A stretch of DNA of 64,000 nucleotides from Octopus vulgaris (taxonomy: Eukaryota). This document shows, in pieces, positions 7,784-64,000 of the stretch (the stretch's first letter is position 1; each line of letters opens with the position of its first letter). The notes below the pieces were generated by a model, which worked only from the letters and a program-made list of their open reading frames with translations, did not search any database and was not told where the DNA came from. The stretch is taken from contig OX597816.1 in assembly GCA_951406725.2 (NCBI GenBank), forward strand, positions 138,632,001 to 138,696,000. The letters run 5' to 3'. The position numbers and the translations under genes are program-made.

Positions 7784-8280
7784 TTAGTTAGTTAGTTAGT
7801 TAGTTAATTTGGCTCAAAAGCAAATAGCAAGGCCATGTAGGGGGACATGGAGTTAAGTACAGGGTGGTGTTCATGTAAAGAGTTCAGGCCACTTGAGGTC
7901 AAGGGAGGCTTTGAACAAAGCGGTCGTCGGCATCTTCACCATCTCGTCTGGCAGCTTGTTCCACGGATCCGCAACCCGGACGGAGAAAGCTCCTCTCCTT
8001 CGATTGAGATGAAATCGTCGCAGGTAGAGCTTTTCGGAATAACCCCGCAGCCGACGCTCTGGAGCAGGAGTGAAGAACAGCTCTTTCGAGAGGTTACACT
8101 TTCCGCTTATGATGTTGTGGGCGAGAATGAGATCACCACGGCGCCGGCGTTTTTCAAGAGAATAAAGGTCGAGCGTCCTCAGCCTTTCTTCGTAGGACAA
8201 ATTTTTGAGACCATGAACCATGCGGGTAGCCAGCTTCTGGACTCTTTCGAGATGCTGTATGTCTTTGAGGAGATAAGGAG
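7784..8280 (-). mobile_element. CR1-type LINE 3' fragment
   Basis: ORF 7871-8221: LSYEERLRTLDLYSLEKRRRRGDLI...FSVRVADPWNKLP...FKASLD, followed by a (CTAA)n tail. Confidence 0.9.
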
Positions 8281-8748
8281 AACTCGTATTTTTGTATCAT
8301 TAGGCGTCTTCGATATAGCATGTAGACACCATTCATTTACTGTTGAACATTTAGACCAGATTTTTACGATTCTAGTTCAGAAAATACATTTCAGCCCTCC
8401 AGCCTTTTGGATGAGAAACTGCACTCTGATACATATGTATCAGAGTGCAGTTATGAGAAGGATATCAATTCATTCTCTGTCACTTTCCAAATATAATAGG
8501 ATAAATATTTTTAAATAATTTATTTCTCAATCGAATGGAGTAGTTATGTAGTGCATGCCTGCTTTTGAATGAAATTCTGTTTGTAGCTAAGTATTTTGGT
8601 ACGTTGTTGTTAGTTTAGCTCGGTACACTAGTACTTATCGATCTCACATTGACTTACAGAAAGAAACCCAGCACTCGAAGTAATTTTTAGAGGCTCTGAA
8701 ACAAGTGGTAATAAGTGGGGCATTTATTACATATAGACACATACGCAA

Positions 8749-16710: not shown

Positions 16711-16783
16711 TATTATTATTACACACGTGTCGAAACGAGGAAGCAAGCCAACAGAAATTTGTAAACATTTAGTTATCCCCGTA

Positions 16784-16832
16784 TCGGCTCGATTTCTGGA
16801 TTAATCCAAAACAATTTTTCCTTCATCAGCGA
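16784..16832 (-). ncRNA. Degenerate type-I hammerhead motif
   Basis: Minus strand reads UCG-CUGAUGA-AGGA...UCCA-GAAAUCGA-G-C-CGA. The U16.1 position reads G. Confidence 0.5.
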
Positions 16833-16991
16833 GGAATACTGAAAATGAAAATAAAAGGAATACTTACACATAGCGACGGAAAAGCAGACGCAATGACACG
16901 TATACACATAAGTACCCCAAATATATCCAAATAGAAATTCTGTAGCAAGCCTCGACATGCGGGCACCCAGTCAGGAATACCACGAATGAGG

Positions 16992-22368: not shown

Positions 22369-23324
22369 ATGTGTATAAAATGGAATTGTTACAACCACAC
22401 AGTATGTGCGTGAATATATGCAGGTACCTATGTAATTTTGTGTGCATTCATGTAAGTATGAATGTATGTGTATGTGTGTGTGAGTCTGTCTGCGTATATA
22501 CATACATATATACATACATATATACATGCACACACATATACACACACATACATCCACAGAGAGAGAGAGAGAAAGAGTGGTATAGAGAGAGACAGAAAGG
22601 AAGAAAGACACATACAGAAACGGGAGAAAGAGAGATAGTTATAGAGATGCACCGATAAGTAGGAACGCAAGCGAGTAGAGTATACGACATACCCACAGAT
22701 TAGGAGTGCATTACATAGAACAATTCTATACGGTCATATCGTGGACACCGAGAGGAGTACATCTACCAGAGTATCAAGATACTAATAGACTACCCCCACT
22801 AGAACACCTAACATATTTCGGGATGCTGAACTTTGGTGAGAGATTACAAACCAGAGGTTTAACTCCTCCACACCTATTATATGAAACCCAGGGCTTCCAA
22901 ATATATTTTTCCCAAGAACTCGGCTTTATTTCTCAATAATAAGATAAGCATACATATAGCGGATTTAATTAGGATAATGAACAACGTACACCCCAGTGAA
23001 AGCCCTACGAAATAAAGAGACATCCATAAGGACTTTATGCACTGTATGTAGTTCTCTGGCTACAAGTAGGGACATGAGGTCTGAGAGATCTATCTCCTGG
23101 AACATCTATCACCTGGAACATGGTTTCTGACTTTTTTATGACTTTTTTTAGCAAAAAAGTCAGAAACCATGGTCCAGGAGATAGATGGTAAATGTTTTTA
23201 TTTTTCATTTCCTTCGAAGTTTTATCCCTAATAGTGGTTTGGACTTTGGCTTTTCCTTCTAGCGTGCCAGGAATCCTATGACGGATACGTCTTACCTGTT
23301 TAAATATACACTGTATTTATATGC

Positions 23325-23382
<58 letters not shown>

Positions 23383-26335: not shown

Positions 26336-28150
26336 TTATTATCATCATCATCATTGCCTTTGCACAGCTTCTAACGATGGGGGTGTACTACGGTGTCAGC
26401 TGTTCACTACCAGTGAACTATGGTAACACGTCTTATTTTTCGAGCACCTTCCGGAGTATTCGAGCGGTTCTAAGCAGTGTTGTTTTCTGCAAGTGCTCCA
26501 CCCTTGTTGCAGCCCCTATTTGTTCCACGGACTTCTCGAGATTTTTACTCACTGTTCCCAGGGTTCCGACAATTATTGATACTACTGCTACCTTTTTGAT
26601 CGACCACAACTGCTTAACTTCCCAAGCTAATCTGTCATATCTCTCACTTTTCTTTCTTCTTTATCGCATACCTTGTTGTCAGCTGGGCATGCTAAACTGT
26701 GATCCAGTATATTTTGTTTTCTTTCTCAGTTAAGACTATGTATAGTTTGTTTTCTTTCTCAGTTAAGACTATGTCTATCTTCCTAATCTGTATCTCATGC
26801 TCGCACTGAATCATGAAATCCTATAGGATCTTCGCATTTCTATTTTCGACGATACCTTCAGGTTTGTGGTCGTACCAATTTTTTTCTCTGTCAAATCCAT
26901 ACTTGTTGCAAAGTTCAATGGCCAAGCCTGCCTATATAGTCGTGGCGTCTCTTATATTCCTTCTGGGCTTGTGACGTACATTGGCTGGTAATATGCCATA
27001 CGGTTTCACCGTTTTGTCCACAGATTCTGCACTTATCACTTTCTGCTGTGTTGTCTATTCTGTACTTTATGTAGTTTGTTCTTAGCGCTTGCTCTTGGGC
27101 AGCATAGATTAGAGTCTCCGTTTCCGGTTTAAATCACTTTTAGTCATCCACAGCCATTTTTTTCTCTGTCTGTCTTATCTTCAACATCCCTATGAAATTG
27201 TCCACGCATTCTTTACTCACCTATTTTCAGTTTCATTCATTTACACTTTCTTGTATAGTGCTTTAACTTTGCAATCTTTCATCCTATACAAGCCTGACAT
27301 TCTTCTAATAATAGCGGTTCTGTAGCATTTTTTACATACCATGCTATGTTGTTTTCTTCTGCTCTAATGCTGTGTTCGCATCCAGTAAGTCCTCTTCCCC
27401 CTCTTTTTCCTGGTACATACAGTCTGTCTGTGACACTTTTTGGGTCGAGTGACCCATATCTAGTTAGCAACTTCCTTGTCTTTCTCTCTAAGCTGCTTAG
27501 TTCGTCTACTGTCCATGCAATTACCCCTGCTCCATGTCTAAGGAGTGAAACCACCCAGGTGTTGATAGCTTCTATCTTATTCCGTCCGTTTAATTTCGAC
27601 TTAAGTATCAGTCTCAGTCTGCGCAAGTACTCTACCTTAATTTTTTCTGTCATTTCTTTCTCCATCAATTTATCCATTTCCCAAATCCCCAAGTACTTAT
27701 AGCCCGTCTCTTCTATCTGCTTCATACCCTCCCCTGACGGTATCGTAAGCCCGTCCATACATTTGATTTTGCTTCTCTTCAAGACTAACACGCTACGCTT
27801 TCTCAGTCCGAACTCCATTCTGATATCAGCACCGAAGGTAAACACCATATCAATGAGGGTACTGACTTGGGCTTCATCTTTACCATAAAGTTTGAGGTCA
27901 TCCATGAATAACAAATGGTTGACTTTTTGCTAGCGGCTTTTGAATACATACCCTGCTTTTGCTTTCCTCAGAATTAGTGTTAGTGGTATCAAGCACAGTA
28001 CAAAGATCGGTGGGGACAGGCAGTTCCCTTGGAAGATGCTCCTCCTAATTTCTACTGTCTCAAAACTTCTTCCATATGCTGTCAAGTCCGTCCTCCAATT
28101 TGCCATACTTTTTCCCAAGCAATCGTTCAACATTCGATGCAATACCAAAT
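26336..28150 (-). mobile_element. R4/Dong-clade non-LTR retrotransposon, 5'-truncated and degenerate (RT plus C-terminal CCHC/REL region)
   Basis: IRRSIFQGNCLSP, HLLFMDDLKLYGK, MEFGLRK, YKYLG, KLNGRNKIEAINT, DRLYVPGKRGGRGL, CRICGQNGETVWHI, RRHD, LQKTTLLRTARILRKVL. Ends in an (ATG/ATA)n tail. Confidence 0.88.
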
Positions 28151-30992: not shown

Positions 30993-31582
30993 CTCAAAGA
31001 AATTCCAACTCTGTCTGTTTTTATGTTTTATTTATATTCTTATAATATTAATATAGGATATAGAATATAGAATATATAGTAAGAAAGAAATTAAATGAAG
31101 TATTGATTGTCTTATTAAACAAATGAAATATTGAAACTTAAATATTAAATGTCTATTCTCATTGAACTAGTATACTTTCTTGCATTTAAGCATTCATCAG
31201 GTTCAGATTGTGACGGATTCCTCCAAATTTACTTTATAAGTGATGTAGGACAACAAACCCGACGGAAGTGTCAAAATTTCAGATGATGGGTCGTGTTAGA
31301 CACAGCGCCGACTGCTGCAAAGGAGAGTATATCCACTGACCGCAGTTCGGTGCGTTCAAAACCCACATAATCCCCACCTTCAATTTTCCATAATATGTTA
31401 CCGCCTGAAATACTTCAAACGGACGCATAGCATGTTGCTTAGTCGAATTAGCCCAGCATTGACTCCAAAAAAGTTTTGTTGTCAATGCTGCAATTTCCTA
31501 TGTTACCTGTTTCAACATAACTGTAATATATTATATACAAACTTGCCAGTGATACCCGAGCAATGCCGGGTATCACTGCTAG
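30990..31582 (+). mobile_element. Non-autonomous Helitron-like element
   Basis: 3' ACCCGAGCAATGCCGGGT hairpin followed by CTAG|T. Same type of end as 53590-53620. Confidence 0.6.
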
Positions 31583-39260: not shown

Positions 39261-39428
39261 GGAGTAAACACATAAATGTGAAACAAGGTGGAAAAAAGAG
39301 TACTCAAATACCAGTGGTAGAGTAATATGCTTTATTTTAAGCAGCAGAAAATTCAACAAAATCTGTTACTCTGAGTTTCTCGTTGCCGTTCATCATGAAT
39401 TAATATATATGTTCCATTCTAGCAAAAA

Positions 39429-39466
39429 CTGTCTGATGAACGGCAACGAGAAACTCAGAGTAACAG
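39429..39466 (+). ncRNA. Minimal type-I hammerhead ribozyme motif
   Basis: CUGU-CUGAUGA-ACG-GCAA-CGA-GAA-ACUC-A-GAGU-A-ACAG. Predicted cleavage after 39462. Confidence 0.7.
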
Positions 39467-39498
39467 ATTTTGTTGATTTTTCTGCTGCTTAAAATAAA

Positions 39499-61211: not shown

Positions 61212-61449
61212 CTTTCTTTTACTTAAGTCATTTGACTGCGACCATGCTGGAGCACCGCCTTTAGTCGAGCAAATCGACCCCAAGACGTACTCTTTGTAAG
61301 CCTACTATCTATTCTATCGGTCTCTTTTGCCGAAGCGCTAAGTTACGGGGAAGTAAACACACCAGCGTCGGTTGTCAAGCGATGTTGGGGGTGGGGGGAC
61401 AACACATACACACAAACACACACACACACACACACACATACGACGGGCT
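61212..61449 (-). mobile_element. SINE family A, 3' half, truncated at the next element
   Basis: Reverse-complement tail ending at CGACGGGCT. Confidence 0.85.
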
Positions 61450-61757
61450 CATCGTGTCTCATCGTTTTACATTATAATTTTTCAAATTCATCGCGCAAGC
61501 GCAGTTTCAGTCGGTAGTAAATGAATATATGCCGAACTAATCTTTTAAAAATTGCTAAAATCATATACGTAAAATATAGGGTAGCGAGTGTTTTTTTCAG
61601 AAATTTCACTACCAGTGGCCTAGCATTTATAAAAGTCAATAGACAACATATAAAATAGTGTACATTTAAGGACAAGAGAGACTGAAATTTGAAAAATTAT
61701 AATGTATAACGATGAGACACGTGTTCGTCTCTTACTTATATGTTAGTACTATGGCGC

Positions 61758-61828
61758 GGTCACTGATGAGAAATTCGCCTAGCAAAATAATTTATTTGTT
61801 AAAAAAATTTTGAAACCTCGGTCTGACC
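61758..61828 (+). ncRNA. Type-I hammerhead ribozyme with intact core
   Basis: GGUCA-CUGAUGA-GAAAUU...AAUUUU-GAA-ACC-UC-GGU-C-UGACC. 5-bp stem I, GUC triplet, predicted cleavage after 61823. Confidence 0.82.
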
Positions 61829-64000
61829 AGAATAAAATAACAAGGTAAATTTTTTTAATTTTTCATTCCTTTTGAAGACTTCTCTTAAATGTGGTTTTGG
61901 TCGTTTTGACTACTTCTTCTAGCGTTTAAAACTGCTTGTTTAAGGCAGTTTCTCTTGTGTTTAAATGTACACTATTCTATATCGAGAATATGTTGTCTAT
62001 TGACTTTTTTATACATGCTAGGCCACTGGTAGGGAAATGTTTGAAAAAAAATCGCTACCCTATATTTTACGTATATATATGTATATATATATGAATATAT
62101 ATATATATATATATATCGCTTTGGGATTTGGTTTGCAAGATTCTTTATATGACTTCGTGTGTTGAAGCATATTCTGTTGTGTCTGGGGAGAGTCATTTTC
62201 TTTTTGTGCCTTATAATTTAACACACTCACCGGTAAAATTTCCACTTATTCCTTATTTTTATATTCTTAAAATTTTCGTTGCGCCTTGCAACCATTTCAA
62301 TAGTCTTGGCTCTGTCCCTTATTTACACTGCGTTCCTTTTTGTTTGTTTGTGCGCATGTGTGTGGGTCAGTATGTGTATGTGTGCTTATGCATGCATGCA
62401 TGTATGTATTTATGTACGTATGTATGCATGTTTATGTATATGTGTGTGTATGCATCTGTATATATGTATGTGTGTGCATCTGTATGTATATATTCTGCAT
62501 ATTCATGTGCTTGCATGTCCGTGTTTGTGTGTTTTTTATGTATGTGTGCATGCGTATGTTTGTATATGAATGCACCTCTGTCTGTGTGTGTGTTTTGCAA
62601 CTATGTACCATCCGTTTAATGTAAATAATGTAAATAATGTACATAATTCCTCATCTCTTCAATATAGAACTGTATTCTTGCTTTCACTGATGTAAGTCAC
62701 CATCTTTCTGTTACTACCTTTCCCTCAGACTAATACTTTTGCAACCTTCTTATTTTAACATATAATTCGCTCAACGCGCCTGTGGGGACATATAGATTTT
62801 TATTGAAAACCATTTAGCCTATTATTGAACTGAATGTTAGTGGAATATGTATGCAAGGTTTCGTAAATATTGGTTCGCTGGTTTAGGCACTAAGATGATA
62901 ACAGACAGAAATTGCCATTTATATATATAGATATATACATTTTTAATATAATTAAAAACAATTTTTAATATAAATTACCTCGTTTGAAAACTCTTAATTT
63001 TATATGTGTATATATATATTATATATTATATATATATGTGCCTGTGTGTGTGTGTGTGTGTGGAATGTTCATGTTTTATGCTTTTAATTACGCTTGTGCA
63101 TTGTTTTCCAGTAGACACACATGTAAAACCAATCCTGCAGGAGTTAAAGAAACATCTTGTAATTTCAGCTTCAGTCGATAATTCAATAAAAGCCTCTCCT
63201 ATCTTTCACTCACAACTGCCACCTAAAATACATAAAAAAAACACGTTACTAGCCTGAATACTTTTTTTCATTTTAATTATTTATTCTATTTTTTTGTTAT
63301 TTATTTATTAGTAGAACCAGTTCTGTAATCCTTAAAATAAACCGTTACACCGATCTACACCTCGTCTGCTGTGAATACATAATAAATAATTATGACTATT
63401 AAATATGATTTAAGGGTGTTCTGTTTTGTAAGCCATTTGCGAGAAATGTTAAGCTGTTTTCATTATCAACCATATCGTATATCAGTTGGAGAGATTAGAT
63501 ATTAATTCAACATGAAGGGAGTGAAATATAGTTAATCTACTTAGAACGCCGTCGTGTTTGCTCGTCCATTTCCAAGTCTGAAGTTGAATTAAGAGCAAGA
63601 AATAGTTTGTGTATTTTTCACAGCAACTCTGTAGCCAGTCAGGTTGTGTTTCAAATTCCTGGGTCAGGGTTTACTTAGTATAGATATCTGGAGCGCTCAT
63701 AGGTTATTAGCTCTGCTGTTGGTGTATAATTTTAGCCTTAATTTACTAAATCATTTTTACATGCTCATAGCATATACAGTAAGTTAGAGGGAAGCTTATA
63801 AAATATCCGTGATCGTCATACGGTTTTGATTTCCCTCCATATCTTTTGCAATTCCCTCGTTGAGTTATATGAGAATGTATGACTGCAACAGAATTTCGCT
63901 TTCATTTCAAAGTATATCTAAGGAATTTGCACATTTATCAGAAACCTGTGTTTTTGTAAGATTTAAGAAAACTTATGCTTTATAAACTGTTGCGACACGT

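Follow-up and report, generated by a model that had tools for sequence, protein, structure and literature searches.

Within the 64-kb stretch of octopus DNA analysed here (the window), a hammerhead ribozyme motif lies inside an element made of crossing inverted repeats, at 61453-62076. The initial annotation described this hammerhead as the best preserved and as the top candidate for an active ribozyme. We asked what kind of element carries it, how the inverted repeats arose, and whether the copy in the window deserves that description.

The hammerhead and the anatomy of the window copy

The annotated type I hammerhead at 61758-61828 (+) is present with an intact core. It carries the NUH site, the CUGANGA element (CUGAUGA at 61763-61769) and the GAAA element (61812-61815) by which a hammerhead is recognised, as well as the 5-bp stem I (GGUCA/UGACC), a GUC site with predicted cleavage after C61823, and the extended stem II, which consists of 61770-61775/61806-61811 with a closing G-U pair followed by a hairpin of 61780-61786/61795-61801. 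Stem III had been given as ACC-UC-GGU. The standard minimum hairpin loop is 3 nt, so a 3-bp stem with a 2-nt loop is unrealistic in a monomer, which would instead form 2 bp closed by a CUCG tetraloop. The sequence concerned, ACCUCGGU (61815-61822, +), is a version of a family palindrome, ACCUAGGU, disrupted at 61819, which is one of the private changes of this copy, along with 61787, 61790, 61799 and 61829.

A strict type I descriptor had a single match in the window, whereas 100 Markov shuffles yielded none; it should be noted that the descriptor was modelled on the 61758-61828 motif itself, and that the shuffle control excludes a chance pattern and nothing more. Nowhere in the window did an Rfam match reach the gathering score. 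The MFE structure differs from the hammerhead fold (−14.1 vs −9.5 kcal/mol, which places the hammerhead 4.6 above the MFE), and the predicted folding of the region is no more stable than that of shuffled sequences (z = −0.74). Stems I and II were predicted to pair with a probability of 0.01-0.02 in RNA of the whole element and of about 0.7-0.8 in a short construct covering 61740-61850.

Further motifs of this type were observed elsewhere in the window. The motif at 16777-16834 (−) is type I hammerhead-like, with a stem I of 5-6 bp and a stem III of 4 bp; on helix III it is a better monomer candidate than 61758-61828, and a motif resembling it was found near a GIY-YIG match in L072. A small hammerhead at 31163-31205 (−) has an exactly palindromic stem III (AGUAUACU), and similar motifs lie downstream of GIY-YIG in L086 and L090. 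The small hammerhead-like motif at 39428-39467 (+) has a stem II of 2 bp in its predicted fold.

The element begins, as had been annotated, where a high-copy repeat which we take to be a SINE is cut off (61227-61449, +; 3' half missing). This repeat, the left flank of the element, has very high contig depth at 61237-61421 and loose ends at 61226; it breaks at about 61449, and an intact copy in L087 extends beyond that point. On the right, also as annotated, the element ends in (TA)n; this likely target microsatellite occupies 62077-62117, and (TA)n-type repeats are where the family in general ends. Another very high-copy repeat (62125-62300) starts directly after this tract.

The inverted pair A (61453-61488)/A' (61686-61721) was verified at 35 of 36 positions. 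For the pair B/B' the 25/25 identity was confirmed, and the pair proved to be merely the tip of a longer one, 61563-61684 against 61946-62076 (122/131 bp; 112 of 120 aligned bases identical, 13 gap positions). Alignment to the family profile with nhmmer, in which unit positions are denoted h, divided the element into two arms. The inverted arm (61453-61684, −) covers h338-467 and then h1-109, i.e. it crosses the tandem junction, and it has no hammerhead. The forward arm (about 61685-62076, +) covers about h73-467 of a non-coding unit of ~467 bp. A (−; h74-109) is where the inverted arm overlaps the start of the forward arm, making A/A' a 36-nt overlap between both arms, and B/B' is the unit end, present in each arm, with the extended B (−) an inverted copy of 61946-62076. 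Between A and B lies spacer Y (61489-61562, −; h1-73), which connects A' with the unit end in those copies elsewhere that form direct tandems. The alignment backs the earlier interpretation of the A-B-A'-B' order as an inverted, permuted partial copy placed upstream of the main copy.

The forward arm reads through E1 (61976-61982, +; h~374), the commonest 3' end of the family, and continues for a tail of ~93 nt (61983-62076, +) to E2 at 62076. The left junction bears a 7-nt repeat (CTCATCG twice), and the outer end at h109 is shared with L006 and L183; in none of these loci does it lie in (TA)n. This outer end may represent either a minor start or a later deletion: since the left end in the window is neither E1 nor in (TA)n, a later deletion could have produced A/A'. 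The locus has a single hammerhead and no second one, and the element has no ORF, the longest stop-free frame being 74 codons with no RT or GIY-YIG frame. Open frames were noted in the window at 7871-8296 (−) and 27279-27929 (−), presumably resembling C-terminal fragments of LINE proteins.

A dispersed tandem unit with two fixed ends

The element in the window belongs to a dispersed repeat family whose tandem unit is non-coding and measures ~467 bp. In the genome (2.8 Gb, 227 contigs) there were 245 exact matches to a 26-nt pattern from outside the hammerhead and 38 to a 28-nt hammerhead pattern, with 0 for the reversed control in each case; among the 40 of 3010 candidates that were scored, many relatives had 82-90% identity. 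Our sample of 115 distinct loci was drawn from the 30 best DNA matches, 30 loci with the hammerhead pattern and 90 additional stretches, of which 2 came from DNA matches and 88 from among the first 100 of the 245 places with the 26-nt pattern; the family profile was built on 37 natural stretches. In other genomic copies the pieces that are inverted in the window precede A' in direct order, from which we recovered a head-to-tail unit; 16 natural stretches cover it in full, and its length in these is 451-470 bp. Most copies comprise 0.3-1.6 units and two units are rare (L229, and L216-L218 of a sister family). Arms traversing the unit junction were found 28 times and L229, the sole such case in the family, contains two full units, the hammerhead core being altered in the one that was inspected; the template was therefore longer than one unit.

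The 3' ends of the copies fall at two fixed sites separated by 93 nt. We anchored 88 pieces on the hammerhead-independent pattern: E1 (h362-395, mostly 372-375, corresponding to 61982 in the window) is the end point of 54, E2 (h440 or beyond) is reached by 28, and the other 6 stop elsewhere; most then run into (TA)n or a microsatellite derived from it, and 4 of the 28 E2 pieces continue into the next unit. A head-to-head, two-armed organisation was found in 50 of the 115 loci, the other 65 having no inverted arm. The two-armed loci used their ends very unevenly: 27 combined E1 with E2, 3 combined E1 with E1, none combined E2 with E2, and 20 had at least one other end (at h101-109 in 5 of these). 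When the 60 ends were paired at random, at least 27 mixed loci in 30 were never reached in 200,000 trials, and of the 15 two-armed loci in the sample chosen independently of the hammerhead, 14 were mixed (P = 0.002). Both arms of one locus often cluster together on the tree (L025, L036, L189, L002). Overlaps of hundreds of bases between arms are frequent, and the length of the arms and the position of the inner junctions are freely variable. Several hallmarks of Penelope-like insertion were observed in the family, namely partial tandems, a 5' inverted truncated copy, two internal 3' ends and a one-sided tail.

In several other copies the E2 motif, following (TA)n, is the precise starting point. 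5' truncations and head-to-head junctions cluster at h40-60 (61503-61523 in the window), just upstream of a GCGC-TT-GCGC hairpin. When anchored arms were examined for fossil run-off at the cleavage site, 0 of 89 started at h215. Starts at h221-235 were found in 8 of 75 at-risk arms, vs about 0.05 per bin nearby, this being one AT-rich bin among many.

We also found a sister family with about 70% identity to the unit family of the window (at 23151-23322 in the window). In this family stem I is changed to CCUG/CAGG and stem III to ACCAUGGU (one variant of which carries one extra base), with pairing and self-complementarity kept. The stem II hairpin extension, which in the window lies at 61780-61801 (+), is almost unchanged between the two families and has 585 matches at ≤ 1 mismatch. 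Sister-family ends fall into the same two classes (25 E1, 33 E2 and 10 other among 68, overlapping loci not removed). The window itself holds a truncated two-armed sister-family copy (23100-23325), with the 3' half of a hammerhead (GAAACCATGGTC), a fold-back junction and an end of the E1 type leading into (TA)n. Copies of this family in direct tandem order can carry two hammerheads (L216-L218), and some of its copies have a U3 core variant. Small non-coding hammerhead elements with partial tandems were additionally observed between (TA)n tracts at L064:421-1020 (−) and L087:3309-3868 (+), with stem III ACUCGAGU; the L064 element is about 62% similar to the unit family of the window.

Selection on source elements and decay of inserted copies

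In an alignment of 48 of 49 copies (L115 was omitted as an outlier), 90.9% of cells were paired, vs 19-47% in slid controls. Double-sided changes in the hammerhead stems numbered 54 vs 22.5 in shuffled data (0/500), and significance was not reached by the pair-count (49/500) or the pair-type (325/500) covariation measure. Covariation supports helices I and II; helix III had one double-sided change. On a tree of 104 pieces, whole clades differ by a stem I swap from C-G to U-A (24 vs 80 tips), by a swap in stems I and II from U-A to C-G (9 tips) and by a change of the cleavage base from A to C, so the covariation amounts to a handful of events. Internal branches carried 0 changes in 10 non-CpG core columns and 158 in 182 other columns, and at family level the core is conserved. 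As the stems covary between subfamilies and the core is unchanged on internal branches, we conclude that source elements were selected, and these substitution patterns suggest that the hammerhead was likely functional in the parent elements.

Terminal branches gave a different picture. Among 52 tips chosen via the pattern outside the hammerhead, 19 core changes were found vs 22.0 expected (p = 0.30). This test replaced raw and all-sample tests, in which the apparent deficits of core changes (23 vs 40 and 33 vs 49 expected) include subfamily changes or core-selected loci. Judged by their sequences, inserted copies are decaying neutrally, with no sign of selection on the core.

The window copy has 17 differences from its subfamily in 329 columns (5%), five of them within the hammerhead, and other copies diverge by 3.5-8%, with one at 14%. 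Core and NUH site are kept in 70 of 113 family hammerheads. When a stem I of at least 5 bp and a monomer stem III are also required, 26 of the 113 qualify, the window copy among them; all dimer criteria leave 10. The exact stem III palindrome is found in 41 of 113 and not in the window copy; ACCTAGGT occurs in 40/113 and ACCTCGGT in 3/113. A stem III duplex formed in trans has a predicted energy of −4.5 kcal/mol for the window copy vs −11.4 kcal/mol, and cofolding predicted a double hammerhead for the intact natural copy in L020 (1568-1652) and not for the window copy. With 5% divergence and a broken palindrome, in a family where many copies pass the same monomer requirements, the label of best-preserved hammerhead and top candidate is unsupported; the window copy is probably a fossil that is now decaying.

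It is unlikely that the window copy is an active ribozyme in vivo today, cutting read-through transcripts as a monomer, whether selected or by accident. Its intact core and GUC site, its 5-bp stem I and the folding of stems I and II in the short construct would agree with such activity, as would the monomeric cleavage of published retrozymes with a 2-bp helix III (PMC7229834). These features have to be set against the five private changes in the motif, the very low pairing probability of stems I and II in element-length RNA and the lack of a second hammerhead at the locus; moreover, retention of the core and NUH site is widespread among copies with no sign of selection. Activity in vitro could still be seen, because motifs with a 2-bp helix III cleave as monomers (in the axolotl Amex2, a 2-bp helix III with a tetraloop gives 22% cleavage in 1 h; PMC7229834) and the 61740-61850 construct is predicted to fold stems I and II. 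Weak in vitro cleavage by the window copy is accordingly plausible, and we would put measurable cleavage of this short construct at near even odds.

Insertion mechanism and relation to known elements

The best explanation for the window element is that it is a copy, now 5% diverged, of a Penelope-like element (PLE) of a non-autonomous, retrozyme-like kind, which would have been inserted by target-primed reverse transcription on both strands and is probably decaying; we give this reading a probability of roughly 0.8. On the evidence of arms that span the unit junction and of the two full units in L229, the template may have been a tandem or circular RNA. A Penelope-type RT/GIY-YIG protein would nick both strands at (TA)n, and two cDNAs would be primed at the internal TATAT sites E1 and E2, be truncated at their 5' ends and then be joined head to head by microhomology. 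In the window copy the second arm appears to terminate at the minor site h109, so that the arms overlap by 36 nt and yield the crossing A-B-A'-B' order. The hammerhead of the source element would cleave mainly as a dimer via the palindromic stem III, and that of the window copy weakly at best.

Other routes to such a structure were weighed. A MITE or other DNA transposon, in which B/B' would be the terminal inverted repeats and the hammerhead the cargo, with a TA target duplication, would account for an inverted pair of 122/131 bp with TATA ends on both sides. We consider this extremely improbable and rejected terminal repeats by design: B runs straight into Y and A, which are both unit sequence, most loci have no inverted arm at all, the variable arm lengths and inner junctions leave no fixed terminal inverted repeats at both ends, and E2+E2 was used in 0 of 50 two-armed loci. 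Mobilisation by a LINE through ordinary 3' priming is somewhat less improbable, if still quite doubtful. L1-like twin priming yields 5' inversions with small overlaps, and the 7-nt repeat at the left junction would suit an A end created by later deletion against the SINE. Second primers at one fixed site rather than anywhere, overlaps that often reach hundreds of bases, and circularly permuted tandems without poly(A) all argue against it.

A coding partner for the unit family was sought among GIY-YIG stretches (PF01541; 148 matches of 6136 candidates, with 20 loci and 20 larger stretches scanned). In none of these 40 fetched stretches, a small sample dominated by one young family, was the unit carried as a pseudo-LTR, and the only match to the family profile came via an unrelated small element. 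An all-against-all comparison of the upstream flanks of family copies gave no coding flank among 6 shared matches. We did find an intact PLE, L092:1-5165 (G000:C16:20835000-20840165), with a 781-aa RT and GIY-YIG frame, a 359-aa upstream ORF with no Pfam match, downstream repeats bearing TGACGTC and CCAAT-like boxes, a (TA)n target and a 40-nt tail. Its linker has the CxxxxCxxC motif, as in Neptune. Its many copies are 99% identical, and it is therefore much younger than the unit family of the window. The L092 family resembles that family in having two 3' ends (40 nt apart) into (TA)n, with one end per arm in its 2 two-armed loci among 20, and its TTTTAC..ATAT end motif resembles E2. L092 had no sequence match to the unit of the window and no hammerhead was found in it; it would thus be an analogue and not a demonstrated partner. 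With L092 unmatched and no coding partner found, the link to Penelope rests on anatomy and not on homology.

That anatomy agrees with published descriptions of PLEs. PLEs form partial tandems with an adjacent inverted, 5'-truncated copy and a tail of 30-40 bp that is often one-sided, and have a bias towards (TA)n (Craig et al., PMC8557442). One PLE protein was shown to cleave and extend both strands, with two internal RT starts that bound the tail; in vitro it does not depend on hammerhead cleavage, and its hammerhead cleaves only in the presence of the protein (Frangieh et al., PMC11167929). Mobilisation of retrozymes by PLEs has been proposed (PMC7761336) and argued from phylogeny (bioRxiv 10.64898/2026.07.22.740005).

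We see an even chance that the copies of the family preserve, on a genome scale, a fossil record of two-strand priming by Penelope on retrozyme-type RNA. In this reading one RT dimer would use one fixed site per strand (27:3:0), its template would be a hammerhead RNA in tandem or circular form, and a 93-nt tail would be left, with a third minor start at h109. If so, it would provide direct insertion-signature evidence that PLE proteins mobilise animal retrozyme-like elements, as well as a one-site-per-strand rule that was unseen in the in vitro PAc study, where the start sites of the two strands were not seen to differ in the accessible part of the report (PMC11167929). The single locus in the window is of little weight, being one among hundreds of fossil copies. 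Through anatomy, not phylogeny, the family as a whole connects non-coding, retrozyme-like units with insertion of the Penelope type, and it yields a countable rule for the use of two RT start sites. It also separates selection on source elements (covarying stems, an invariant core and a palindrome preserved in two related families) from the neutral decay of copies, which calls for caution with motif scans that declare such genomic hammerheads active. In the accessible literature on octopus hammerheads and non-autonomous Penelope elements, including PMC8967140, we found no description of the ~467-bp unit family, which may be present in Repbase or Dfam.

Compared with EN+ PLEs (Neptune/Poseidon), as described in PMC4209133, PMC8557442 and PMC11167929, the unit has the same kind of hammerhead, with a long stem II, a short stem I and a palindromic helix III. 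This is the dimer type of PLEs, which has low activity in vitro (Cervera and de la Peña, PMC4209133); its palindromic helix III is present in 41 of 113 family copies and absent in the window copy. An evident loop-loop motif is seen neither in the unit nor in the EN+ PLE hammerheads of these sources. The unit family also shares with EN+ PLEs the partial tandems, the 5'-truncated inverted copy, the one-sided tail, the two internal 3' ends and the (TA)n targets. It differs from them in having no ORF, a unit of only about 467 bp, a tail of about 93 nt (30-40 in the published accounts) and a possible third minor end, and in that our search found no homologous coding partner.

Animal non-LTR retrozymes, as described in PMC7229834 and bioRxiv 10.64898/2026.07.22.740005, are similarly non-coding and low in GC, with units of near 150-450 bp; at 451-470 bp, our non-coding unit with its type I hammerhead lies at the upper edge of the retrozyme size range (about 150-450 bp). 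In both, each unit has one type I hammerhead, units are joined head to tail, monomers are dispersed and PLEs co-occur. Unlike these retrozymes, the unit family mostly has 0.3-1.6 units, has a PLE-type instead of a canonical hammerhead and is known here from DNA copies alone, and its strong PLE insertion signature is absent from the retrozyme descriptions in the available parts of the two sources. By analogy, the window element would work like a Penelope-like element and be built like a non-LTR retrozyme monomer, with neither the ORF of the former nor, at this locus, the tandem hammerheads of the latter.
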